A stretch of 64,000 bases of DNA from Bacilli bacterium (GCA_028691955.1 JAQUYH010000005.1:14777-78776); one strand, 5' to 3'. Positions 3,267 to 62,146 are shown, numbered from the stretch's first letter. Notes: a model not told the origin generated them from the sequence alone. Made by a program: numbers and translations.

Positions 3267-3356
3267 TATAATTCTCCTTCCGCCATGACAAACATTTGCC
3301 ATAGAAATTTAATACCAAAATAGTATAGCAATAAAAACAAAATTTTGCAACAGTTT

Positions 3357-15680: not shown

Positions 15681-15696
15681 TGTTTCACGTGAAACA
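15681..15696. promoter_or_regulatory. parS site 1 (TGTTTCACGTGAAACA)
   Basis: Perfect 16-bp palindrome matching the Firmicute parS consensus TGTTNCACGTGNAACA. It lies between the SRP RNA 3' end and the tadA RBS. Confidence 0.8.
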
Positions 15697-15704
15697 TAAA
15701 AAAA

Positions 15705-15775
15705 GCACACACATTTAGAGGCTTATAAAGCTGCTACTTTCCAGTCCTGACTTGGTTAAAGCATAAATGTTGTGC
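15705..15775 (-). ncRNA. ffs: small (4.5S-type) signal recognition particle RNA; ends approximate
   Basis: The minus strand reads GCACAACAUUUAUGCUUUAACCAAGUCAGGACUGGAAAGUAGCAGCUUUAUAAGCCUCUAAAUGUGUGUGC. It contains the domain IV core AGUCAGGnCnGGAAnGnAGCAGC, closed by a long terminal stem. It sits at the same locus (near tadA and dnaX) as scr in Bacillus. Confidence 0.8.
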
Positions 15776-15817
15776 ATATATAATATAATATATTTTTTTT
15801 AATGTTTCAATATTTAA

Positions 15818-21532: not shown

Positions 21533-21985
21533 TTAAATTTTTTCCATTTTTTTCTGTAACACATCCGATAGTCTAGTAGAACGTAATATTTGACTTTCTA
21601 AACTAAAAAATGACACATCTAAAATTATTTCCACAGCATTATTAAATATAATTTTTGTTTTATCAAGCAATTTATTATAATCTTTAATGTTATTTAATGA
21701 AATCCAGCAACAACTTTCTTGTCTAGGAGAAGCCGTAGGAAAAAAAATTATTCTTCTACTCTCTTCAATTATAATTGGCGCTTTATAATTATAACCTACT
21801 AAATTTTTAGTTCCTTCAAACCTTCCAGTATATGAACTACCAAAAAACTTACAGCTACCATCTATAATATCAAAAGAATTTTTTTCCACAATAAAATCTT
21901 TTTCCTTTTCATAGATTCTACTTACATTTTTAGAAATTGGCACTATAGCTAACGTCACTGTTGTTATTTCATACTCTTTAATCAT
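21533..21985 (-). CDS. comK: ComK-family competence transcription factor homolog
   Basis: CKFFGSSYTGRFEGTKNLVGYNYKAPIIIEESRRIIFFPTASPRQESCCWISL aligns with the B. subtilis ComK block CRFFGSSYAGRKAGT...HKPPIMVDPSNQIFLFPTLSS..QCGWIS. Strong GGAGGTGA RBS before the ATG at 21985. Confidence 0.75.
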   Translation of the reverse strand: MIKEYEITTVTLAIVPISKNVSRIYEKEKDFIVEKNSFDIIDGSCKFFGSSYTGRFEGTKNLVGYNYKAPIIIEESRRIIFFPTASPRQESCCWISLNNIKDYNKLLDKTKIIFNNAVEIILDVSFFSLESQILRSTRLSDVLQKKMEKI

Positions 21986-22030
21986 CTTTTCACCTCCAAA
22001 CAAATTGATAATCTTATACCACAAAAAATT

Positions 22031-31296: not shown

Positions 31297-33027
31297 ATGA
31301 ATGAAAATTTAGAGAATAAACAAGTTAGGATGCTAAAACTTGGCGAAATATTACCTAATAGATTTCAACCAAGAATTCATTTTGATGAACAAGCGTTAAA
31401 TGAATTATCAGCTTCAATTAGACAGCACGGGGTAATTCAACCAATAATAGTAAGACCTTTAGGCGATAAATATGAAATAATAGCTGGAGAGAGAAGATAT
31501 AAAGCCTCAACTTTAGCGAACGTAGAAGAAATTCCAGCAATCGTAGTTGATTTAAATGATAAAGAGAGTTCAGAGCTTGCCCTTATAGAAAACGTTCAAA
31601 GACAAGATCTAACCCCAATAGAGGAAGCTATATCATATAAAAAGATTCTTTCTATGGGTTATCTAAAACAAGAAGAATTAGCCAGTAGACTAGGCAAAAC
31701 CCAATCAACAATAGCAAACAAGTTAAGATTACTAAACTTAAGTCCAGATGTTCAAGACGCTTTAATGGATGGAAAGATATCTGAACGCCATGCTAGATCA
31801 TTGTTAAAGCTAAAAGACTTAGCCAAACAAGATTTGTTATTAGATAGAATAATAAAAGAAAGATTAACAGTCAGAAAGACTGATGAGGAAATAAATAATA
31901 TGATAGATAGTAAAGATGTAGAAGTTCTAGATTTCAACAAAGAAGTAGCAAGTCCAGAACAAATTAAAGATCCATTAAAACAATTTGATAGTCTATATAA
32001 TATACCAACAACAGCTATAGTGGAAGATAGTCAAGATGAAAATCTTCCTAAAATACCCAATATAACAGCAGCAAAAAGCATATTTGACGAAGCAAATGAG
32101 GGAATTCCAACTGCTGAAGTAAAACCTATAGAGCCAATTCAGACAAGTTTTGCTACCGTAGAAGAAGCAAGGCCTATTGAACCAGTGAGTACCATTGCAC
32201 AAGAAGAAAATCCTGGGTTTACTGATATTAATAAAATAGAGCAAAATGCATCTGATATAAATGTTGAACCAAGAAAAATATCATTAGAAGAACTACTAAA
32301 ATCCCCTGGAAAAGTTGTTTCAACAGCTGCAACTGAAGTGCAACCACCAATTCAGCCTGTAGTAGCAGAAGAAAAGGCGACTGAGCCAGAAGATGATTCC
32401 TTATTTAAAACAGGTAAATTTTTTACAATGATGGATGAAGGAAAAGAGCAATTCGTCCCAACACCATCACCAGTGACAACTCCAGAATCAACTATTTTTG
32501 AACCAAATTCATTAGATAATAAAGGCTTTAATGTGGCTCCAGAAAGTCAATTAGCCGATCTTTTGAAAGATACTCCAAAGGTAAATCCAGTCCCTCTAGA
32601 AAAAGTAGATGAAGGATTTGATATGCCTGTAACAGAGATAGAAGAAGATGAAGGAGAAACAATTCCAACTGCCCCACTACAAAATGAAGATGAGGATTTA
32701 GATAAAACAATGGTTTTTGATTCAGTACCATCCAATATTTCTAATTTATCGGAATTCAAAATGCCTCCGCTTGACGATTTTGCAGCACCAACACCAGAAG
32801 TAAGTCCAGCTCCTGCTCCAGCAGAGTATTCACCAGTTTATGAAGATGAAGAAAAACCAGAAGCAGTAGACAATAATAAATATGGAGCAGCCGATTTAAG
32901 AACAGTAATTAATACAATCCGTAATTGTGCAGCAACAATTGAAAAATATGGATATGTATTAGACACAGAAGAGTTTGACTTTGAGGATATGTATCAAGTA
33001 ATATTTAAAGTTCAAAAAAAGAAGTAA
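31297..33027 (+). CDS. noc: Noc-type ParB-family protein with a long internal low-complexity insertion
   Basis: The N-terminal half has ILPNRFQPR, GVIQPIIVR and GERRYKAS. Its HTH region TQSTIANKLRLLNL..VQDALMDGKISERHARSL matches Noc (GQSTIANKLRLLKL...ITERHARAL) rather than Spo0J. The last roughly 50 aa (DLRTVINTIRNCAATIEKYGYVLDTEEFDFEDMYQVIFKV) match the Noc C-terminal domain. An in-frame TAG lies immediately upstream of the ATG. Confidence 0.8.
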   Translation: MNENLENKQVRMLKLGEILPNRFQPRIHFDEQALNELSASIRQHGVIQPIIVRPLGDKYEIIAGERRYKASTLANVEEIPAIVVDLNDKESSELALIENVQRQDLTPIEEAISYKKILSMGYLKQEELASRLGKTQSTIANKLRLLNLSPDVQDALMDGKISERHARSLLKLKDLAKQDLLLDRIIKERLTVRKTDEEINNMIDSKDVEVLDFNKEVASPEQIKDPLKQFDSLYNIPTTAIVEDSQDENLPKIPNITAAKSIFDEANEGIPTAEVKPIEPIQTSFATVEEARPIEPVSTIAQEENPGFTDINKIEQNASDINVEPRKISLEELLKSPGKVVSTAATEVQPPIQPVVAEEKATEPEDDSLFKTGKFFTMMDEGKEQFVPTPSPVTTPESTIFEPNSLDNKGFNVAPESQLADLLKDTPKVNPVPLEKVDEGFDMPVTEIEEDEGETIPTAPLQNEDEDLDKTMVFDSVPSNISNLSEFKMPPLDDFAAPTPEVSPAPAPAEYSPVYEDEEKPEAVDNNKYGAADLRTVINTIRNCAATIEKYGYVLDTEEFDFEDMYQVIFKVQKKK

Positions 33028-33100: not shown

Positions 33101-34450
33101 ATGCTTATAGAAAAGATTGAAACAAACCTTTCCAAAAGAAAATTTCATATAAAAGAAGAGATAAAAATAACAGAAAAATCAAACACAGAAAACAATCTTA
33201 TAATAATTTATCCAAACATAACATATCAAGAAATAATAGGATTTGGGGGTGCTTTTACAGAAGCTTCAGGCTATAACTTGAATAAACTAAATAAAGAAAT
33301 AGCAAATAAAATAATAAATGATTACTTCTCTATAGATGGGAATAATTACAATTTATGCAGAACTCACATCAATAGTTGTGATTTTTCTTTAGAAAATTAT
33401 AATTATTCTAATAATCCAGAATTAAAAGATTTTTCCATTAAAAGAGACAAGGATTTTTTAATTCCAACGATAAAGAAAGCCGTCTCAGTTAATAAAAGCA
33501 TAAAGCTACTTGCTTCGCCATGGAGCCCTCCACCATTTATGAAAACAAACAAAAAAATGAATAATGGAGGAAAATTATTAGAAAAGTACTATGCCAGATG
33601 GGCGGAGTATTTATTAAAATATATAAGAGAATACCAAAAAGAAGGAATAAATATAAATTATATTACAATTCAAAATGAACCCAAAGCAACCCAAAGCTGG
33701 GAATCTTGTCTTTATAGTGCAGATCAAGAAAATAAATTTATTAATAAATATCTATTTCCATTATTTCAAAATGCAAAAATAAACACAAAAATTCTTTTAT
33801 ATGATCACAATAAAGAGGAATTATATAAAAGAGTTAATAGTATAATGAAAGAAAATCTGTCCCAAAAAAGTATATATGGAGCCGCTTTTCATAATTATAG
33901 TGGAGATCACTTTGAGAATATTAAAATATCAAAAGAAAAATTTCCAAATTTATTTTTCATTCATACAGAAGGCTGCAACGGATATATAAGACCATACATA
34001 AATTGTAACAAAAGAAACCAAATAAAGGCAGCAGAGAGGTATGCTCATGACATTATAGGAGATTTAAACAGCGGAGCTAATGGATATATTGATTGGAATT
34101 TGCTTTTAGACTACAATGGAGGTCCAAATCATCAAAAGAATTTTTGTAGTGCCCCAATAATGCTTAATAAACGAGGAAATAATTATTATAAAATGCTATC
34201 TTTTTATTATATTGGTCATTTTAGCAAACATATAAAAAGAGGAGCTAAGAGGATAGCAATTTCTAATTACAACAGCGAGATAGAGAGTACAGCCTTTATT
34301 AACTTAGATAAAACTATTGTTATCATTATTCTTAATAGAAACAATAAAGAGATAGAATACAACTTAACTTTAAATGACAAAATTTATAATAATATAATAT
34401 TAAGACACAGCATTTTAACACTAATAATAAAGGAGGAAGAGCATGTTTGA
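33101..34450 (+). CDS. glycoside hydrolase family 30 (glucosylceramidase-like)
   Basis: [32 protein letters not shown] (acid/base Glu) and FIHTEGC (nucleophile Glu) motifs. Confidence 0.8.
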
Positions 34451-43322: not shown

Positions 43323-43351
43323 AGCAGTTATCATATAGATAACTGCTTTTT
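43323..43351 (+). terminator. intrinsic terminator after eno
   Basis: Hairpin AGCAGTTATC-atata-GATAACTGCT plus a T-run. Confidence 0.8.
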
Positions 43352-43352
43352 G

Positions 43353-43381
43353 TTGAAAAAATGAAATATTAGTGTTATAAT
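43353..43381 (+). promoter_or_regulatory. near-consensus promoter with extended -10 for the DGR target gene
   Basis: TTGAAA (43353-43358), a 17-nt spacer ending in TGt, then TATAAT (43376-43381). GGGAGG RBS before the ATG at 43426. Confidence 0.65.
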
Positions 43382-43425
43382 CAAGATAATAAAAATAATA
43401 ATATAGTTTATGGGAGGATATTAAT

Positions 43426-45396
43426 ATGAAAAAAGGTTTTACTTTAATAGAACTTTTAGCAGTAATTGTAATATTAGCTATAATAGCTGTTATTGCAACT
43501 CCAATAATATTAGGAGTAATAGAAGAAACTAGAGCAAAAGCTTTTGATGTAGAATCTTCTAATATAGAAAAAGCGGCTGAATATTACTTAACTAAAGACT
43601 TAAGAGTGGAAGATATTCCAGAATATACAGAGTATTATATTAAAGTAAGTGATTTAGTGGGTTTCTTAGATCCTATAACAGATGATATAAAAGATAATTA
43701 TGTTGTAGTTAAAAAGAGTGGTAATAGTATAAGTTATTATTACACAGGACGTGATGATAATCCTTATACTTATTCTGATAATGAAACATTAAAAGAGATT
43801 ATAGAAAGTAATATTGGTTCGCATATAGCAAACAATGTAGTAGTAAATGGAACTACTGTTAATAAAGTAATAGGTACTAAAGCAGAAAAGAAAACAATTA
43901 AAAACTGGGTATACTATTCGGGACAATTATGGCAAGTATTAGAAACAACTGGTGATTATGTTAAACTAATAACAGCTAATTCTATAACTTCTATAGCTTA
44001 TGGCTCTAATTCAACCTGGAGTACATCATGGGTAAGAAAATGGTTAAATGAAATAGATAGTGAATCAGATGAAGATGGGATATACTATAATAATTTATCA
44101 AGAAGTGATTTATTATTAGATGGCAATTTCTGTTTAGATGAACCAACAGATATAACAGAGGAATCTTTTACTATAGGAACAGAAACAAGAAACAAAGTAA
44201 CATCATTTACGAAAATAAGTACATGCTCAAGTATATCAACCGATAAGATAGGATTAATGACATTTGAAGACTATGTATATGCATTAGATGGAACAGATGG
44301 TATAACAGGAGCTTTAGGAGGATCATTTATTGATGAAGATGAACTAGAGTGGACCATGACTAAATATACAGTAGGTGGAGTAACCAACAAGACATGGCAC
44401 ACTTATTACCTAAGTCCATCACATATAGAACATGGTTGGAATGGAACAACTGATTATGGAAAAGGCGTACGTCCTGTAATTTATTTATCAAGTGATTTAA
44501 TAGTAGAAAATAATAGTGATTCTGATTATGGACAAATAACTAATCCATATAGATTAGTAGGAGAACAAACAGCTGAAGAAAGTGATTTACTAAATACTGT
44601 GACAATAGGAAGTTATGTATATATAAGTGAAGAAAACAACCCAAACACAACAACAACAGAAACAGTAACAGACAATATTAGTTATACATATGATAAGACT
44701 AAAGTAAGATATAGAGTAATATCAATAAATGATAATGGAAGCATAAAACTACAAAGAGCCGATGTGTTAAGAAACTTGTCTTCAACAATAGCCATAAACT
44801 CAAATACATATATACCGTTTTATTACTATAACAATGGAGAAAACTCAACAAGTTGTGCTTACTTAAATAGTACATGGTATACCGGAGGATGTACAAATCA
44901 TAATTACTTTCAACCAACCCAAGGAAGCGGTGCTTATGCTTATACTGAAAGTGAAAATATAGGATACTTCTTAAATAATACAACTAATGGATATTATACA
45001 TGGCTCTCTGATGATGTAAAAGCAAACTTAGTAAATTATAATTGGAACTTAAATGTAAGCTCCAATGGTTATGATTATACAAGAAGTTTATTTAATACTG
45101 ATACTAGTGGAATATATCCATCTAGAATAAGTGATGGGATAGTTTCATCTTATGTAGGACTACCTTCATGGGGAGACATGTTTGCAGCAAATGATATAAA
45201 TACAAGTTATTGGCTTATAAACAGATGGTCAGGCTCATCTTCCAACGTCTCGTATGTGCACTCCGACGGTAATTCCAGCAGCATCTGCGCGTCTTATATC
45301 TGGTTTGGTGCGCGCCCAGTTATCAGTCTTACATCTAACACTCGTATAACAAGCGGAGAAGGTACAACTGATAGTCCATATATATTAAATTTTTGA
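43426..45396 (+). CDS. DGR target protein: prepilin-leader (type IV pilin-like) protein with two tandem lectin-like modules, C-terminal variable region
   Basis: The N-terminus MKKG/FTLIELLAVIVILAIIAVIATP is a prepilin cleavage/N-methylation motif with Glu at +5. The modules end in GKGVRPVIYLSS (about 44464) and FGARPVISLTS (VR). Confidence 0.88.
   Translation: MKKGFTLIELLAVIVILAIIAVIATPIILGVIEETRAKAFDVESSNIEKAAEYYLTKDLRVEDIPEYTEYYIKVSDLVGFLDPITDDIKDNYVVVKKSGNSISYYYTGRDDNPYTYSDNETLKEIIESNIGSHIANNVVVNGTTVNKVIGTKAEKKTIKNWVYYSGQLWQVLETTGDYVKLITANSITSIAYGSNSTWSTSWVRKWLNEIDSESDEDGIYYNNLSRSDLLLDGNFCLDEPTDITEESFTIGTETRNKVTSFTKISTCSSISTDKIGLMTFEDYVYALDGTDGITGALGGSFIDEDELEWTMTKYTVGGVTNKTWHTYYLSPSHIEHGWNGTTDYGKGVRPVIYLSSDLIVENNSDSDYGQITNPYRLVGEQTAEESDLLNTVTIGSYVYISEENNPNTTTTETVTDNISYTYDKTKVRYRVISINDNGSIKLQRADVLRNLSSTIAINSNTYIPFYYYNNGENSTSCAYLNSTWYTGGCTNHNYFQPTQGSGAYAYTESENIGYFLNNTTNGYYTWLSDDVKANLVNYNWNLNVSSNGYDYTRSLFNTDTSGIYPSRISDGIVSSYVGLPSWGDMFAANDINTSYWLINRWSGSSSNVSYVHSDGNSSSICASYIWFGARPVISLTSNTRITSGEGTTDSPYILNF
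45233..45319 (+). repeat. DGR variable repeat (VR)
   Basis: 75/87 identity to 47531-47617. All 12 differences lie opposite TR adenines. It encodes SSSNVSYVHSDGNSSSICASYIWFGARP. Confidence 0.95.
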
Positions 45397-45418
45397 ATAA
45401 TAACATATTGATATAATG

Positions 45419-45456
45419 CAAACCCAAAGGGTTTGTAACGGGCCAGACTTGGTCCG
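45419..45456 (+). other. two adjacent GC-rich hairpins just 3' of the target ORF
   Basis: CAAACCC-aaa-GGGTTTG (45419-45435) and CGGGCCA-gact-TGGTCCG (45439-45456; 7 bp including one G-T pair, 4-nt loop). They are conspicuously GC-rich for this genome. Confidence 0.6.
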
Positions 45457-45476
45457 CAAGTGGCAAAACAATGATT

Positions 45477-45526
45477 AAAGAAGTATTTTAATATTATGAT
45501 ATAAATAATATAAAATACTTCTTTTT
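45477..45526 (+). terminator. long-stem intrinsic terminator between target gene and accessory operon
   Basis: AAAGAAGTATTTTA (45477-45490) pairs with TAAAATACTTCTTT (45511-45524) across a 20-nt loop, and the stem runs into a T tract. Confidence 0.6.
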
Positions 45527-45544
45527 GCAAGAAAGGAAATAAAA

Positions 45545-45973
45545 TTGAAATCTATAGATATATACTTTGAAATCAAAAAAAAATATGCCGATTACATAAT
45601 CATGTACAAAATGGGAAACTTTTACAACGTCTTTGGAGATGACAGTCATATTATAGGAGCTCTTTTGGGATATAAAATAAATAGTAACAATAATGTTTTA
45701 AAAGTAGGATTTCCACTAATATCTCAAGAAAAAGTTTTAAAAGTATTAAACAAAGAAAAAATCAATTACATAATTTTGGAAAAAGAAGATGGAATAATTA
45801 ATATCAAAATAAAAAAAAGATATATCACAAACTCATATAACTATTTTAGTAGAGATACACAGTCATTTTGTGAAATTAAAAATAGAATAGAAAAAATAAA
45901 CAGTAAATTAAATTCCAAAATTAATGAAAAAAATATTGATAATATATTAAAACAAATTGAGAACATAATATGA
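45545..45973 (+). CDS. small MutS-domain-I-like protein (DGR accessory ORF)
   Basis: YFEIKKKYADYIIMYKMGNFYNVFGDDSHIIGALLGYKI...KVGFPLISQEKVLKVLNKEKINYIILEK parallels the MutS mismatch-binding domain (Y.EIK..Y.D.IL.FR.GDFYE.F..DA......L.I.LT....AGVP.H....Y...L...G..VAI.EQ). It has a TTG start with an AAAGGAAA RBS, and its stop overlaps the avd start (ATGA). Confidence 0.65.
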   Translation: MKSIDIYFEIKKKYADYIIMYKMGNFYNVFGDDSHIIGALLGYKINSNNNVLKVGFPLISQEKVLKVLNKEKINYIILEKEDGIINIKIKKRYITNSYNYFSRDTQSFCEIKNRIEKINSKLNSKINEKNIDNILKQIENII

Positions 45974-46314
45974 AAGATAATCTAATAATAATAACTAGAA
46001 TCAAAAAAACAATACTAAAACTAGAAAAAATAATTGAAAATTTCAGTAGAACAGAGAATGTTTTAAAAGATAATATCAAAATAACAATGTATGAATTTTT
46101 AAAAAACGCTTATAAAGCAAATATTTCTAAAGATAGTACTAGATTAAATTATCAAAAAGAAATGATTGTAAATATTAAGATGTTAGATTTTTACATAAAC
46201 TGCTCGTACAACAAAAAAATGATAAGTCCTAAACAATACAATTTAATGGGGCAAAACTTTTTAGAAATTTTTTCAATGATTCAAGCATGGGTAAAAAGTG
46301 AAAAGACAAAATAA
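45970..46314 (+). CDS. avd: Avd-like four-helix-bundle accessory variability determinant
   Basis: 114 aa, basic and predicted all-helical, ending ..SPKQYNLMGQNFLEIFSMIQAWVKSEK like the Avd/S23-IVS family. It sits immediately 5' of the RT and overlaps it by 17 nt. Confidence 0.75.
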   Translation: MKDNLIIITRIKKTILKLEKIIENFSRTENVLKDNIKITMYEFLKNAYKANISKDSTRLNYQKEMIVNIKMLDFYINCSYNKKMISPKQYNLMGQNFLEIFSMIQAWVKSEKTK

Positions 46315-47515
46315 TTTATATGAAAAGATCGTTGATACAAGAAAAATATTAGATATTTACAATCGCCAAATAAAAAAATCTACTAAAAATAAAGAGAAAA
46401 TAGAACGATTTGAACAGTATTTAATGATAAATATTGCTAAAATAGAAACAATGTTAAAAAATAAAAATGTTTCATTTAATAAGTACAAAATATTTTTAAT
46501 AAGAGATCCTAAGTATAGAGTAATAATGAGTCAAAGTGTAGGAGATAAAATTATCAATCACTTAGTAGCAAAATATTTCCTTTTAGATATTTTTGAAAAA
46601 ATTTTAATAGATGAAAATGTTGCCACAAGAAAGGGAAAGGGCACAACTTATGGAATAAACCTTATAAAAAAATATATAAATGATTTAAAGAAGCAAAAAA
46701 AGCCAATATACTATTTAAAGTGCGATGTTAGCAAATATTTTTACAACATTGATCACAATACATTAAAAAAAATAATAAGCAAGAAAATTAAAGATAAAAG
46801 CGCAATAGAATTAATAAATAAAATAATAGATACTTTTTCAAGTAAATATGTAAATAAAGAAGTAAATGATGTATGTAATAAAGAAATAGAGTATGTAAAT
46901 AGTCTAAATATTATGGCAATAGAAAAACAGCAAAAAATCAAAGATTTAGAAAAAATTAAGGCTACTATAAAAGATAAAAAAGGCATACCAATTGGGGATA
47001 TGACAAGTCAAGCATTTGCTATAATATATTTAAATGAATTAGATCATTACATAAAAGAAAATTTGAAAATTAAATACTATGTACGTTATATGGATGATTT
47101 AATAATATTAAATAATAATAAAGAAAAATTAAAAGAAGATTTAAATAAAGTTAAAGAAAAAATAGAAGATGAGTATTTATTAGAATTAAATAATAAAACA
47201 CAAATAGGCATGTTAAAAAACGGCTTAGACTGTTTAGGATTTAGATTTATATTATCTAAAGACAAAATATACTTAAAAGTTCGTACTAAAACTAAGAAAA
47301 GGTTTAAAAAGAAAGTAAGAAAACTTTCTAATTTAATAATAAAAGGTAAAATATCAGAAAAGTCATATTATCAATTGTTAGCAAGTTATAAAGGTCATCT
47401 TATTAATGGAAATACATATAAATTATATTCTAGTGTAGCAAATAAAGGTAATGATAAAGTCAATTTAGGTGAAAACGTTTATATTGATAAATTTGGAGAA
47501 ATAATTAAGGGATAA
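46298..47515 (+). CDS. DGR-type reverse transcriptase
   Basis: RT motifs PKYRVIMSQSVGDKIINHLV (1/2), YYLKCDVSKYFYNIDH (A), GIPIGDMTSQAFAIIYLNELD (B, containing the DGR-typical IGxxxSQ), YVRYMDDLIIL (C, YMDD) and LDCLGFRF. GTG start. Confidence 0.92.
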   Translation: MKRQNNLYEKIVDTRKILDIYNRQIKKSTKNKEKIERFEQYLMINIAKIETMLKNKNVSFNKYKIFLIRDPKYRVIMSQSVGDKIINHLVAKYFLLDIFEKILIDENVATRKGKGTTYGINLIKKYINDLKKQKKPIYYLKCDVSKYFYNIDHNTLKKIISKKIKDKSAIELINKIIDTFSSKYVNKEVNDVCNKEIEYVNSLNIMAIEKQQKIKDLEKIKATIKDKKGIPIGDMTSQAFAIIYLNELDHYIKENLKIKYYVRYMDDLIILNNNKEKLKEDLNKVKEKIEDEYLLELNNKTQIGMLKNGLDCLGFRFILSKDKIYLKVRTKTKKRFKKKVRKLSNLIIKGKISEKSYYQLLASYKGHLINGNTYKLYSSVANKGNDKVNLGENVYIDKFGEIIKG

Positions 47516-47530
47516 AACTATATAATTTTT

Positions 47531-47617
47531 GCTCATCTTCCAACGTCTCGAATGTGAACAACAACGGTAATTCCAACAGCAACTACGCGTCTAATAACTG
47601 GAATGGTGCGCGCCCAG
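47531..47617 (+). repeat. DGR template repeat (TR)
   Basis: Starts 16 nt after the RT stop. In the VR frame it reads SSSNVSNVNNNGNSNSNYASNNWNGARP, with 11 AAY Asn codons. It holds 26 adenines, 12 of which are substituted in VR. Confidence 0.95.
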
Positions 47618-47843
47618 CTTTGATAAAAACTAACATTTTTAGGATCATGGTTCTAATTTATAAAAGCTTATCAAAACAAGTTTTAATCCCTCTCAAATCG
47701 AGAAAAATAAAGTATGTGAAAAATAATGCTAGTAAATTTATGAAAGTTTTATTTTTGAAAAGCAGATACATTAAGAAAGTTTTACTTCAAGTAAATCTTT
47801 TTTTATTTGTCCAAAAAGTATATAATATAAAAAGGAGGCAAAT

Positions 47844-48593
47844 ATGATAGATACACATTGTCATTTAACGCTAAAAGACTACCCAGATATTAATGAAGTA
47901 ATAAATAAAATGGGAAATAATAAGATAATAGTTAATGGAACAAATGACGAAGAAAATAAAAGAGTAATAGAGTTAATAAATAAATATCCTAATGTATATG
48001 GAGCTATAGGGATTCATCCCGAGGAAATTGATAAAATTACCACTAATTCATTTAAATATATAGAAGAAAATATAAATAATTCTAAAATAGTAGCCATTGG
48101 AGAAATTGGACTAGACTACTACTATGAGACAGACAAAGAAAAGCAAAAAGAAATATTTATAAAACAAATAGAATTAGCAAATAGATACAATAAAACAGTG
48201 GTAATACATAGTAGAGACGCTATAAAAGACACTATAGATATTTTAAATAAGCATAAAAACAAAAATATAAAACTAGATATACATTGTTATGCAGGAAGTG
48301 TCGAGAGTGCTAAAGAATTGATTAAACTAAACTCAATGTTTGGTATAGGTGGTATAGTAACCTTTAAAAACAGCAAAAACATTAAACAAATAGTAGAAGA
48401 AATAGATTTAAAATATCTTTTACTAGAAACAGACAGTCCCTATTTATCACCAGAGCCATATAGAGGTAAAAGAAACGAGCCTTACAACATACTATATGTC
48501 GCACAAAAAATAGCTGAAATAAAAAGCCTTCCTTTGGAAGAAGTTTTAAAGGTAACTACAGAGAATGCCATAAGACAATTTGACCTTGATTAG
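47844..48593 (+). CDS. tatD: TatD-family metal-dependent DNase/hydrolase (YabD)
   Basis: MIDTHCHL, GEIGLDY, VIHSRDA and LLETDSPYL motifs. Confidence 0.92.
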   Translation: MIDTHCHLTLKDYPDINEVINKMGNNKIIVNGTNDEENKRVIELINKYPNVYGAIGIHPEEIDKITTNSFKYIEENINNSKIVAIGEIGLDYYYETDKEKQKEIFIKQIELANRYNKTVVIHSRDAIKDTIDILNKHKNKNIKLDIHCYAGSVESAKELIKLNSMFGIGGIVTFKNSKNIKQIVEEIDLKYLLLETDSPYLSPEPYRGKRNEPYNILYVAQKIAEIKSLPLEEVLKVTTENAIRQFDLD

Positions 48594-48633
48594 CAAATAT
48601 GCTAAAATATTTCATGATTGAGGTGAATAAAAC

Positions 48634-49323
48634 ATGAATATAAGTTTACTAAATATAATTAGTAAATGGGCACAAATATCATTTATTTCATTAATGACTA
48701 TGTTTAATGTTGAAGTAAGCCATGACATAGTTGTTTTAAATAACGATATTGATAGCAAAAATGCATACCAAGTCACTGATGTTATAAATTATGAAACAGA
48801 ATATGTGTATAATGCATCAATTCCTTCTGGAGAACAAAATATACTAACAGAGGGTAAAACAGGTATAAGTTATACTGAAAATGGAGAAATAAAAGTAGTA
48901 GAAGAACCAATAAACGAAGTTATAGAAATAGGTACAGGGAAAACTGGAGTATATGTTGGAACAATAACCGGATATGGTCCAGACTGTGTAGGATGTAGTA
49001 CAGAAGGTCTTGTTTCTTGCAAAACAAAATATAATGAGACATTTAGTTTAACACATGATGGAATATATTACGAAGATGAAGAATATGGTCCAGTTAGAAT
49101 ATTGGCAGCTGACAGAAGAGAATTTCCTTGCGGGACTATAATCGAAATAACCAATTCTAATTTAAACAAAGAATTAGGCATTGTAATGGATACAGGAATT
49201 GCTATGAGAAATGCTTATGATCAAGGATATATACTAGTCGATTTAGCTTTTGAAAAAGGAGCTTTAGCTCTTACTTCAACAGATAGAAACACAACATTTA
49301 TAGTAAAAAGATGGGGCTGGTAA
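48634..49323 (+). CDS. G5 + 3D domain cell-wall protein (YabE-like)
   Basis: N-terminal TM, a G5-like block (ETEYVYNASIPSGEQNILTEGKTGISYT...VIEIGTG), then a 3D/MltA-like C-terminus (GTIIEITN...GIVMDTG). It lies between tatD and rsmA, as yabE does. Confidence 0.7.
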   Translation: MNISLLNIISKWAQISFISLMTMFNVEVSHDIVVLNNDIDSKNAYQVTDVINYETEYVYNASIPSGEQNILTEGKTGISYTENGEIKVVEEPINEVIEIGTGKTGVYVGTITGYGPDCVGCSTEGLVSCKTKYNETFSLTHDGIYYEDEEYGPVRILAADRREFPCGTIIEITNSNLNKELGIVMDTGIAMRNAYDQGYILVDLAFEKGALALTSTDRNTTFIVKRWGW

Positions 49324-49344
49324 GCCCTTTTTATTGGAGGAAAT

Positions 49345-50172
49345 ATGGAATATTCACCAAAAAAGATGAATGAGGTTCTTGAAAACAATAAGTTTTCTTT
49401 TAAAAAGAAATTTGGACAAAACTTTATAATAGATGAAAATATAATTAATAACATTGTAAATAAAAGCTTAATAGACAAAGAAACACTAATTATAGAAATA
49501 GGGCCTGGCGCGGGGTCTTTAACTACTAAATTAGCTGAAAAAAGCCAAAACGTCATAGCTTACGAAATAGATGAATCTTTAAAAAAAATTTTAAATAATA
49601 ACCTAAAAGAATACAGCAATGTTGAAGTTATATATGAAGATTTTTTAAAAAGAAATGTAAAAGAAGATTTAAAAAATTATCAATATAAAAAATTATATGT
49701 AGTAGCTAACCTACCTTACTACATAACTACTCCCATTATAACTAAATTAATAGAAGAAGAGATAAATGTTGATAAAATAATTATAATGGTTCAAAAAGAA
49801 GTTGGAGATAGATTTAAAGCAAAACCTAATAGTAGAGAATATAGCTCCCTTTCCATATTTTTAAACTATTATTTTGATATAAAAAAAATATTAGATGTAA
49901 GTAGAAATGTCTTTATTCCAAGACCAAACGTTGATAGTATCGTTTTAGAGTTTACAAAGAAAGAAAATAAAATTCCTTTAAAAGATCAAGATTTGTTTTT
50001 TAAAATAGTTAGAGATAGTTTTAAGCAAAAAAGAAAGAATATTAGAAATAATTTAAAGACATATGATTTAAACAAAATAGAAGAAACATTAAAAAAGAAT
50101 AATCTTGATTTAAATGTAAGAGCAGAACAATTAAGCATAGAAATATTTGCGGATATAGCTAACAATTACTAG
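49345..50172 (+). CDS. rsmA: 16S rRNA (adenine1518/1519-N6)-dimethyltransferase
   Basis: KKKFGQNFIIDENI, IEIGPGAGSLT and NLPYYITTPII motifs. Confidence 0.95.
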   Translation: MEYSPKKMNEVLENNKFSFKKKFGQNFIIDENIINNIVNKSLIDKETLIIEIGPGAGSLTTKLAEKSQNVIAYEIDESLKKILNNNLKEYSNVEVIYEDFLKRNVKEDLKNYQYKKLYVVANLPYYITTPIITKLIEEEINVDKIIIMVQKEVGDRFKAKPNSREYSSLSIFLNYYFDIKKILDVSRNVFIPRPNVDSIVLEFTKKENKIPLKDQDLFFKIVRDSFKQKRKNIRNNLKTYDLNKIEETLKKNNLDLNVRAEQLSIEIFADIANNY

Positions 50173-60391: not shown

Positions 60392-60486
60392 CACACCGGT
60401 TGTGCTATTTTAATTAAATAATATAGATTTATATTTAAATATATGGTAAAATAAACATTAGAATGGGATAGAAAATGGTGATAAAA

Positions 60487-61272
60487 ATGGGTAAAATAAT
60501 CGCACTTGTTAATCAAAAAGGGGGTGTAGGTAAGACTACTTCCAGCATTAATTTAGCCGCATCTTTAGGCTTCCTAAAAAAGAAAGTGCTATTAGTAGAT
60601 TTAGATCCACAAGGCAATACTACAACGGGAACCGGTGTTGATAAATTAGACTTGAATAAATGCATATATGATTTACTTATTGGCGAGGCTGAAGTAGATG
60701 AGGTTATAAGAAAAACAAAATTTAAAAACCTATATGTTTTACCTGCTACAATTAGACTAGCTGGAGCTGATATAGAATTGATGGAAAGAAGTAGGACTAT
60801 AGAAGGTTTTACAAAAAATGGTCAGCTAAAAAAGAATCTAGACTTAGTAAAAGATAGTTTTGATTATATTATAATAGATTGTCCACCATCACTTGGAATG
60901 CTAACAACAAATGCCTTAACGGCAGCCGATTCCGTTTTAATACCAGTTCAATGTGAATTTTTCGCACTAGAAGGAATAATGCAACTTTTAAATACAATTA
61001 TGATGGCTCAAAAAACACTAAATACCAACTTAGATATAGAAGGTGTTTTACTTACAATGCTTGATAATAGAACAAACTTAGGATTAGAGGTTGTAGAAGA
61101 AATAAAAAGCTACTTTAAAGAAAGAGTGTACGACACAATAATCCCAAGACTGGTTAGACTGTCAGAAGCACCAAGTCATGGCAAACCAATTCTATATTAT
61201 GATGAGAATAGTCGAGGTTCAGAAGCTTATATAAATTTAGCTAAGGAAGTGATTGAGAGAAATGGAAAATAA
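60487..61272 (+). CDS. soj: chromosome partitioning ATPase ParA/Soj
   Basis: The deviant Walker A motif NQKGGVGKTT, IIIDCPPSLG and SEAPSHGKPI. Confidence 0.95.
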   Translation: MGKIIALVNQKGGVGKTTSSINLAASLGFLKKKVLLVDLDPQGNTTTGTGVDKLDLNKCIYDLLIGEAEVDEVIRKTKFKNLYVLPATIRLAGADIELMERSRTIEGFTKNGQLKKNLDLVKDSFDYIIIDCPPSLGMLTTNALTAADSVLIPVQCEFFALEGIMQLLNTIMMAQKTLNTNLDIEGVLLTMLDNRTNLGLEVVEEIKSYFKERVYDTIIPRLVRLSEAPSHGKPILYYDENSRGSEAYINLAKEVIERNGK

Positions 61273-62146
61273 AAAAAGAGCCCTTGGGCGAGGATTAGAA
61301 CAGTTATTTAATAGCGATAACCTAGATTTAGGAGCTATTGAAAAACAAATCTATGAAAATGTATCAAACGAAGAAGTAATTAATATCAAATTAGAAGATC
61401 TAAGACCTAATCCATATCAACCAAGAAAAGTCTTTAAAGATTCAGCTCTTCAAGAACTAGCTGATTCAATTAAGCAGCATGGTGTTTTTCAACCAATAAT
61501 AGTAAAAAAAAGTATTAAAGGTTATGAAATAATTGCTGGTGAAAGAAGAGTTAGAGCATCCAAAATAGCCGGCCTTGAGAAGATACCTGCTATTGTTAAA
61601 GGATTTACTGATGAGCAAATGATGGAAATAGCTCTTTTAGAGAACCTTCAAAGAGAAAATTTAAACTCAATAGAAGAAGCCGAAGCTTATAAAAAAATGC
61701 TAGATAAATTAGAAATAACTCAAGAAGAACTTGCCAAAAAAGTTGGTAAAAGTCGTAGCCACATTACCAATATCATAGGATTACTTAGATTACCAAGAGA
61801 AATTCAAGACTTAATTGAAGAAGAAAAAATATCTATGGGTCATGCTAGGGTACTTTCTAAATTAGAAGATGATAGCAAAGTTATAGAAATAGCTAAAAAG
61901 ATTGTTTCCAATAATTTACCTGTTAGAGAAGTAGAGAAACTAGTAGACAGCTCAGAATTTGAAAGAAAAATAAAAATTGAAAGAAAAAAAAGGGAAACTA
62001 GTTCAGATTTTAAATATGTAGAAGACTTAATGACTGAAAAATTAGATTCAAAAGTAAGAATAAAAGAACACCAAGTTATTATTTCTTTTACCAATACTGC
62101 AGACTTAAAGAGAATACTAGAAATTTTAGACATAAAGGAAGATTAA
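61262..62146 (+). CDS. spo0J: chromosome partitioning protein ParB/Spo0J
   Basis: ALGRGL, NPYQPRK, GERRVRAS and the Spo0J-type HTH KSRSHITNIIGLLRLP...ISMGHARVL. Confidence 0.93.
   Translation: MENKKRALGRGLEQLFNSDNLDLGAIEKQIYENVSNEEVINIKLEDLRPNPYQPRKVFKDSALQELADSIKQHGVFQPIIVKKSIKGYEIIAGERRVRASKIAGLEKIPAIVKGFTDEQMMEIALLENLQRENLNSIEEAEAYKKMLDKLEITQEELAKKVGKSRSHITNIIGLLRLPREIQDLIEEEKISMGHARVLSKLEDDSKVIEIAKKIVSNNLPVREVEKLVDSSEFERKIKIERKKRETSSDFKYVEDLMTEKLDSKVRIKEHQVIISFTNTADLKRILEILDIKED

Follow-up and report, generated by a model that had tools for sequence, protein, structure and literature searches.

In the Bordetella diversity-generating retroelement (DGR), a template:primer duplex between the template repeat (TR) and the spacer (Sp) ends in the priming adenosine and adjoins an upstream:Sp "cPRT stop" duplex, an arrangement also predicted in 207 other DGRs (bioRxiv 10.1101/2023.10.23.563531). 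A small MutS-like (MSL) protein is a known DGR accessory class, corresponding to Architecture D of Wu et al. (2018), in which a small MutS-like open reading frame (ORF) occurs together with avd and without an HRDC gene (PMC5758913). In Bacteroides, chromosomal DGRs that have Avd and, in many cases, Msl diversify the tip adhesins of type V pili (bioRxiv 10.1101/2024.11.15.621889). In gut phages, DUF6273, reported to be C-type-lectin-like, is well established as a domain targeted by DGRs, with the variable repeat (VR) lying C-terminally on a β-hairpin. Here we analyze a 64,000-nt stretch from a Bacilli bacterium (GCA_028691955.1, JAQUYH010000005.1:14777-78776; hereafter the window) that carries a TR/VR pair, a reverse transcriptase (RT) gene, and genes for Avd, an MSL protein, and a pilin-like target. 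We are highly confident that together these form a complete, resident, and recently active DGR.

The repeat pair and its cassette

The defining feature of the locus is an 87-nt ungapped direct repeat. VR (45233-45319, + strand) encodes residues 603-632 of the 656-residue target protein, and TR (47531-47617, + strand) begins 16 nt past the RT stop codon. Base-by-base alignment shows that 75 of the 87 positions are identical and that all 12 mismatches lie opposite adenines of TR, with none at a TR C, G, or T. The differing VR sites (45253, 45259, 45262, 45263, 45265, 45278, 45284, 45287, 45295, 45299, 45304, and 45305) read T, C, T, C, G, G, T, G, T, T, T, and T, respectively, and their TR counterparts (47551, 47557, 47560, 47561, 47563, 47576, 47582, 47585, 47593, 47597, 47602, and 47603) are all A. 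TR is composed of 26 A, 25 C, 18 G, and 18 T, and the probability that 12 random mismatches would all land on the 26 adenines among 87 positions is 5.4e-8 (hypergeometric). The homology breaks off abruptly at both ends, and TR has a G+C content of 49%, as against 28.5% for the 64-kb window. A second VR was found on neither strand of the window, even with every A treated as a wildcard.

Translated in the frame of the target, TR reads SSSNVSNVNNNGNSNSNYASNNWNGARP, with 11 AAY (Asn) codons and one TAC, and VR reads SSSNVSYVHSDGNSSSICASYIWFGARP, with ten codons altered relative to TR and no stop. The adenine-bearing codons of TR are the 11 AAY together with TAC, AGC, TCA, and CCA; no stop can be derived from them, and the repeat has a coding capacity of ∼1.4e14 peptide variants. 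The G+C-rich 3′ end of VR, GGTGCGCGCCCAG (45307-45319, + strand), is matched by the same bases in TR (47605-47617), and the homology ends there. This segment probably acts as a homing boundary resembling the initiation of mutagenic homing (IMH) site, its analog being the (GC)14 element of BPP-1 (PMC3240598).

The cassette comprises four intact ORFs, all on the + strand, in the order target-MSL-avd-RT-TR. The target (variable protein) gene (43426-45396, + strand; 656 aa), characterized through Pfam, NCBIfam, and PDB sequence matches and an AlphaFold (AF2) model, is followed by an accessory gene (45545-45973, + strand) for a 142-aa MSL protein consisting of MutS domain I, the mismatch-recognition domain, only (Pfam MutS_I, E 8.5e-11); NCBIfam MutS models cover just its N-terminal 70 residues. 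The avd accessory gene (45970-46314, + strand; 114 aa) overlaps both of its neighbors, the MSL stop at its start and the RT start at its end, and its product matches Pfam bAvd at 43 bits (cutoff 40). The DGR RT gene (46298-47515, + strand; 405 aa, GTG start) encodes the motifs IGDMTSQ and YMDD. In a PDB sequence search the best solved relative of this RT was the Bordetella bRT (8ub7, E 1e-32), aligned over RT residues 2-378, with group II (E 9e-9) and retron (E 4e-7) enzymes following, and matches to NCBIfam group II, Drt3a, and UG-type/defence-RT models all fell far under their cutoffs. Between two bRT-aligned blocks, the RT also contains a Lys/Glu-rich insertion of ∼50 residues (∼174-226; window 46817-46975). 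By its gene content the cassette falls within the MSL-type (Architecture D) definition, and MSL was found by tblastn in 40 of 81 RT-containing loci, a count that includes an independent assembly of the same strain, described below (L001).

A preliminary description of this locus had reported the same TR/VR coordinates with 12 of 12 mismatches at adenines, which proved exact on realignment; its codon analysis (11 AAY and a TAC, ten codons altered, no stop) was reproduced, and its assignment of a DGR-type RT and of an Avd-like ORF agrees with the bRT and bAvd matches above. It had missed the MSL gene, the prepilin nature of the target, and the conserved RNA duplexes around TR.

VR turnover and the RNA around TR

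Evidence of activity comes from a Logan contig (L001; run SRR22315505), which encodes an RT identical to that of the window and is 100% identical to it over 45306-49657 (4.35 kb), TR included. Yet its VR differs from the window VR by 15 changes (13 at TR adenines, a single T>C, and a deletion of 1 nt), making VR the sole variable spot in 4.4 kb. VR has therefore turned over faster than any other substitution has accumulated in the locus, and the proposal of the preliminary description that the element had fired at least once is strengthened by a different VR beside an identical TR.

The same pattern recurs in the nearest cassettes that have this gene order. In L005, seven of seven TR/VR mismatches are at A, and in three loci of a sister species (L165, L167, and L168) the counts are 8/8, 9/9, and 14/14. 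Within the sister species, L165 and L167, which extend as far as TR, have the same TR sequence, and the flanks are 99.5% identical, so that the comparison originally suggested as a check, VR differing while TR is conserved in relatives, gives the expected outcome. The five full-length targets of this species vary at 12 of 669 columns, all within VR. More broadly, of the 81 RT-containing loci (counting L001), 45 have an A-biased TR/VR pair. Cluster P0104, a more distant subfamily of the target, serves as a natural negative control: its VR-equivalent segment is fixed, and its variation is ordinary and scattered. A scan of Joint Genome Institute (JGI) metagenome contigs for further alleles, using the TR/VR 3′ end and flank, returned three chance matches; the one inspected was on a contig of 62% G+C and had only a 20-nt pattern in common.

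These comparisons bear directly on whether the locus might be a decayed relic, in which VR diverged long ago and is no longer mobilized. That just 12 of the 26 adenine positions differ in the window VR would fit such a history, as would the P0104 paralogs with their fixed VR-equivalent segment and the several paralogs that have no DGR nearby. However, the four ORFs are intact and retain their catalytic motifs, TR, the RNA duplexes, and the G+C-rich boundary are likewise intact, and the L001 VR differs on an otherwise identical 4.35 kb, as VRs do in the sister species. We therefore regard decay as improbable and favor a DGR that has been active recently.

Although the proteins of the window, L005, and L165 are only ∼50% identical, the non-coding sequence flanking TR is near-invariant among the three. 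Folding of the TR region as a single sequence gave no significant structure, which emerged only on comparison across loci. The upstream strand of one duplex, AGGGAUAAAACU (47508-47519, + strand), overlaps the RT stop codon and pairs, with one bulged A, with a downstream strand, AGUUUUAAUCCC (47679-47690, + strand), to form the "stop" duplex. The template strand of the second, a predicted template:primer duplex, is UUUGAUAA (47619-47626, + strand), which begins 2 nt past the end of the TR/VR homology and pairs with the primer strand UUAUCAAA (47668-47675, + strand). The two 3′ strands are joined by a junction motif, AAACAAG (47674-47680, + strand), that is conserved throughout the clade, and either GAAACAAG or AAACAAG lies 3′ of TR in 16 of 45 loci.

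Both duplexes covary. In a permutation test that ignores the relatedness of the loci, within-locus complementarity of the template:primer duplex was above all 2000 permutations (29 loci), and 0 of 2000 permutations reached the complementarity observed for the stop duplex (28 loci). The helix versions found among loci include UUUCCUC/GAGGAAA, UUUCAG/CUGAAA, AGGGUUAAGUU/AACUUAAUCCU, and UGGGGUAGUC/GACUACUCCA, and it is because so many distinct versions are compensated that we consider the helices to be real. A small hairpin between the template and primer strands (47640-47655, + strand), which shows one compensatory change among three sequences, could conceivably be an Avd-binding stem-loop.

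Considered together, these features suggest the following mechanism. A transcript that runs from the 3′ end of the RT gene through TR to ∼75 nt beyond it would fold into the two adjacent duplexes. The RT and Avd would prime cDNA from the terminal adenosine of the primer strand, probably at or next to A47675, and copy from the 3′ boundary of TR. The cDNA would begin at 47618 or 47617, which would account for TR/VR identity ending exactly at 47617. Misincorporation by the RT would occur opposite the 26 template adenines, and synthesis would probably stop before the upstream duplex, 11 nt 5′ of the TR start. The cDNA would then replace VR, the common G+C-rich 3′ end serving as the homing boundary, and the small MutS-domain-I protein may be an accessory factor specific to the cassette.

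Two further features lie close to the repeats. For phage-related DGRs a hairpin 4-34 bp from VR has been described, although it is not a strict criterion. In the window, a conserved G+C-rich hairpin (ACGGGCC-loop-GGTCCG; 45438-45457, + strand) is located in the spacer between the target and MSL genes, 118 bp from the VR end. The hairpin, which includes a G.T/G.U pair, is also present at ∼2326-2345 in L005 and ∼2548-2566 in L165, placing it ∼90-120 bp past VR in three species. It is a candidate for target recognition, for processing, or for an attenuation or other RNA element; a role in target recognition can be suggested only tentatively because 118 bp exceeds the 4-34 bp range of phage DGRs. 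Downstream, a 97-aa ORF with a GTG start (47554-47847) overlaps TR and the RNA elements beyond it. We rejected this ORF as spurious: it has no family match, L005 has no ORF of ≥80 aa there, and it is probably an annotation artifact over conserved RNA. A 72-aa ORF is called in its place in L165 and L167. No Rfam family was found inside the cassette.

A pilin-like target and its family

The target begins with MKKGFTLIELLAVIVILAIIA and has a prepilin cleavage/methylation motif, GFTLIE, with MKKG followed, across the cleavage site, by FTLIELLAVIVILAIIA. Prepilin models match it well above their thresholds (TIGR02532, 32.7 bits, cutoff 16.3; PF07963 N_methyl, 28 bits, cutoff 21.2), and in a PDB sequence search solved type IV pilins and GspG match residues 2-57 only. 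The AF2 model, made from 70 homologs, has a predicted local distance difference test (pLDDT) score of 92 and a predicted TM score (pTM) of 0.90. It consists of an N-terminal helix of ∼50 residues (7-57), a small β head, and two globular DUF6273-like domains, each of which ends in G(V/A)RPVI...GxGTxxxPYxL, the last part forming a strand. In the model the VR residues, 603-632, form a β-hairpin (strands 607-611 and 617-621) and its flanking loops in the second domain.

The only significant PDB structural match found with Foldseek was 9qa6, an IgA peptidase of Thomasclavelia ramosa (E 6.9e-9 for the full model, 1.5e-5 for the domain), the N-terminal domain of which is DUF6273. In the BFVD viral structure library, DUF6273 phage proteins were matched, down to E 1.2e-11, and classical C-type lectin structures matched the VR-bearing domain below significance only. 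Neither domain of the window target matched Pfam DUF6273 (PF19789) at E ≤ 1; homologs did match it, as did the target of a related locus, L083 (27.4 bits, cutoff 23.5). On the evidence of the model, the VR-bearing domain is DUF6273-like. When the two globular domains of the window target were compared by BLASTP, only the shared G(V/A)RPVI motif was recovered. The model, together with L083, in which both domains have a VR, suggests that the two domains are related to each other.

Diversification of this protein would yield a 656-aa pilin-helix product whose C-terminal DUF6273-like β-hairpin displays the variable residues, in up to ∼1.4e14 variants. The target is presumably a surface- or pilus-displayed adhesin, and the variation would presumably alter its ligand specificity. 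The window also contains comK (21533-22024, − strand; Pfam ComK, E 1.5e-41), between dnaN and recF, which hints at a competence (ComG pseudopilus) regulon that could process prepilin-type proteins.

At least 662 homologs of the target were found, mostly of 620-680 aa and with the prepilin motif. The family is multi-copy in some genomes, with nine paralogs on one 188,531-bp contig. Full-length homologs at 51%-59% identity (L082 and L169-L172) occur singly amid housekeeping genes, where the surrounding 6-7 kb contain no DGR, and several homologs that lack a DGR belong to one metagenome-assembled genome (MAG). The target family is thus much larger than its DGR-linked members. One of the unlinked paralogs, P0011 (in L172), was considered as a remote target of the L165 TR from the same MAG; the pair has 10 non-adenine mismatches, and P0011 is not a current target.

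Other arrangements were seen among relatives. In L083 (140-1928), each DUF6273-like domain of a related pilin-like target contains a VR (1062-1139 and 1671-1748). Both VRs match a single TR (1851-1928) directly 3′ of the target gene, after which come MSL-Avd-RT and whiA. Related Bacilli also encode other large proteins with a prepilin N terminus, fused to Bact_surface_Ig-like or to DUF285 and leucine-rich repeats (L089:6989-10262; L172:1-1207), and these are scattered amid housekeeping genes, outside pilus operons. When the C-terminal 157 aa of the target were used to look for VR-bearing protein fragments, one unrelated fragment was returned. The two closest homologs, P0004 and P0005, had no exact entry when looked up. 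Scanning genome contigs with the target protein alone gave nothing, and with an alignment gave mostly generic prepilin N termini.

Genomic setting and comparison with known systems

The cassette is flanked by eno and tatD. Directly 3′ of the eno stop (43315) is a terminator-like hairpin with a 10-bp stem followed by a T run (43323-43347, + strand). A promoter-like site follows (43353-43381, + strand), consisting of TTGAAA, 17 nt, and TG-TATAAT; it matches 11 of 12 consensus positions, has an extended −10, and may serve as the target promoter. A ribosome-binding site, GGGAGG (43412-43417, + strand), lies 3′ of it.

ORFs of 150 aa or more, together with those near the cassette, were annotated across the 64-kb window. 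The others are housekeeping genes of an oriC region, including dnaA, dnaN, comK, recF, gyrB, gyrA, dnaX, recR, mfd, pth, yidC, jag, mnmE, mnmG, rsmG, parB-like genes, uvrB, lgt, whiA, eno, tatD, rsmA, tilS, ftsH, dnaB, and parA/parB. No phage, integrase, or transposase gene is among them, in keeping with the eno/tatD flanks free of mobile genes noted in the preliminary description. The RTs nearest to that of the window, at 40%-53% identity, all come from MAGs of uncultured gut "Bacilli/Tenericutes," one of them a 1.26-Mb circular genome, and phage DGR RTs are only ∼30% identical. Because of its housekeeping neighbors, its nearest RTs in Bacilli MAGs, and this distance from phage RTs, the element is a resident cellular DGR of a lineage-specific clade.

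The genes next to the cassette vary between species. A tRNA-Leu(taa) gene lies ∼250 nt past TR in L005 (4717-4805), and a nucleotide triphosphate (NTP)-transferase gene and tex are the neighbors in L165 (4958-8534), so either the whole cassette, target included, has moved or the genomes have been rearranged. These differing neighborhoods (eno-tatD, tRNA-Leu, and NTP-transferase/tex), together with the fact that DUF6273 domains are typical of gut-phage DGR targets, would be expected of a prophage or other mobile element whose target is a phage receptor-binding protein. Such an origin is nevertheless very unlikely, given that the annotated ORFs of this oriC-region window include no phage, integrase, or transposase gene, that the N terminus of the target, with its prepilin signal and pilin helix, is not that of a tail fiber, and that the RTs closest to that of the element are from cellular Bacilli MAGs. 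An ordinary partial gene duplication beside an RT of another class (retron, group II intron, or defence), to which the sub-threshold matches of the RT to group II, Drt3a, and UG-type models might point, is extremely unlikely in view of A-only mismatches (P = 5e-8) that recur in dozens of related loci, NCBIfam RT matches far under cutoffs with a DGR RT as the best, full-length solved relative, and the DGR-specific partners Avd and MSL.

Several observations nonetheless count against a complete and active DGR with a pilus-displayed target. The L001 VR contains a frameshifting 1-nt deletion and one non-adenine change. The process itself may have made these errors, mixed VR reads may have been assembled into a chimera, or the allele may be dead. 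The exact strain is known from two VR alleles, taken from assemblies rather than reads. Avd scores 49.8 bits against the NCBIfam model DivGenRetAVD, below the cutoff of 80. The 64-kb window contains no pilus machinery or prepilin peptidase genes. For a G+C-rich hairpin or cruciform 4-34 bp past VR, folding of 45300-45420 gave no significant structure (z = +1.1).

Other features of the window are remote from the cassette. There are two ParB-type genes: a long one (31297-33027), after rsmG, encoding 576 aa with ParB_N/HTH_ParB, and a second in a parA/parB pair ∼28 kb away (60475-62146). A GH30 glycosidase gene (33101-34450) is situated between the long ParB-like gene and uvrB. Rfam matches, all on the − strand, are an S-adenosylmethionine (SAM) riboswitch (856-941), an L31 leader (3274-3304) at exactly the gathering score, and a small signal recognition particle (SRP) RNA (15689-15785); no tRNA genes were found in the 64 kb.

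The mechanism, gene set, and RNA architecture of this element are as expected for a DGR, and the under-described part is the pilin-fused target family in small-genome gut Bacilli. A full-text search of the literature turned up just two forms of pilin-type DGR target, one of them the Bacteroides type V pilus tips, and no paper linking DGRs with RF39-type Bacilli; DGR hypervariation tied to type-IV-pilin-like surface proteins in reduced-genome gut Bacilli received passing mentions only in the literature searched. It is possible, although slightly less likely than not, that small-genome, uncultured gut Bacilli have recruited DGRs to the hypervariable tip domains of large type-IV-pilin-like proteins, giving them a programmable adhesin displayed on a filament (type IV or Com-type) and a previously undescribed target class. 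In that case the Bacteroides type V pilus-tip DGRs would have a Gram-positive counterpart, and the host-dependent Candidate Phyla Radiation (CPR) and DPANN lineages, which are rich in DGRs, would have a parallel. The pilin-like family, with its at least 662 members, many paralogs per genome, some two-VR proteins, and many members without a DGR, would then be the new class of target. Display on a filament would also make the system a tractable model for adapting attachment to hosts, partners, or mucosal ligands, and a compact natural scaffold for engineering, with an 87-nt VR and ∼1e14 variants.

Compared with the Bordetella BPP-1 DGR (mtd-avd-TR-brt), the window element shares A-specific transfer from TR to VR, Avd and an RT with IGxxxSQ and YMDD motifs, a G+C-rich 3′ end of VR and TR, and a template:primer duplex beside an upstream:downstream "stop" duplex. 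The covarying helices thus offer comparative support for conservation of the Bordetella priming and termination architecture in a distant, A+T-rich Bacilli lineage. In contrast to BPP-1, which is phage-borne, the window element is chromosomal, its order is target-MSL-avd-RT-TR with TR after the RT, and it has an extra MutS-like gene and an RT insertion of ∼50 residues; its target is pilin-like with DUF6273-like domains, rather than an Mtd trimer, and no hairpin lies within 34 bp of VR. With DUF6273 targets of gut phages, notably the tentaclins of nd4/nd12 and those of Faecalibacterium prophages, it shares the variable-domain fold and a C-terminal VR on a β-hairpin, but those are receptor-binding or decoration proteins, whereas the window target falls below the Pfam threshold and has a prepilin N terminus.

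Other MSL-containing DGRs (Legionella; Bacteroides Bfr/Bth/Bun) likewise combine a gene for a small MutS-domain-I protein with genes for Avd and the RT. In contrast to those, the host clade is uncultured gut Bacilli, the target has a type IV prepilin N terminus fused to it and is neither a lipoprotein nor a type V pilus tip protein, and MSL is unusually common in the clade of the window (40/81 RT-containing loci). The Bacteroides pilus-tip DGRs are likewise chromosomal elements of a gut commensal with a C-terminal variable domain in a predicted pilus-associated adhesin. They belong to another phylum and act on type V pilins, whereas the window target, for which display on a pilus is a prediction, has a class III signal peptide and the helix of a type IV pilin.

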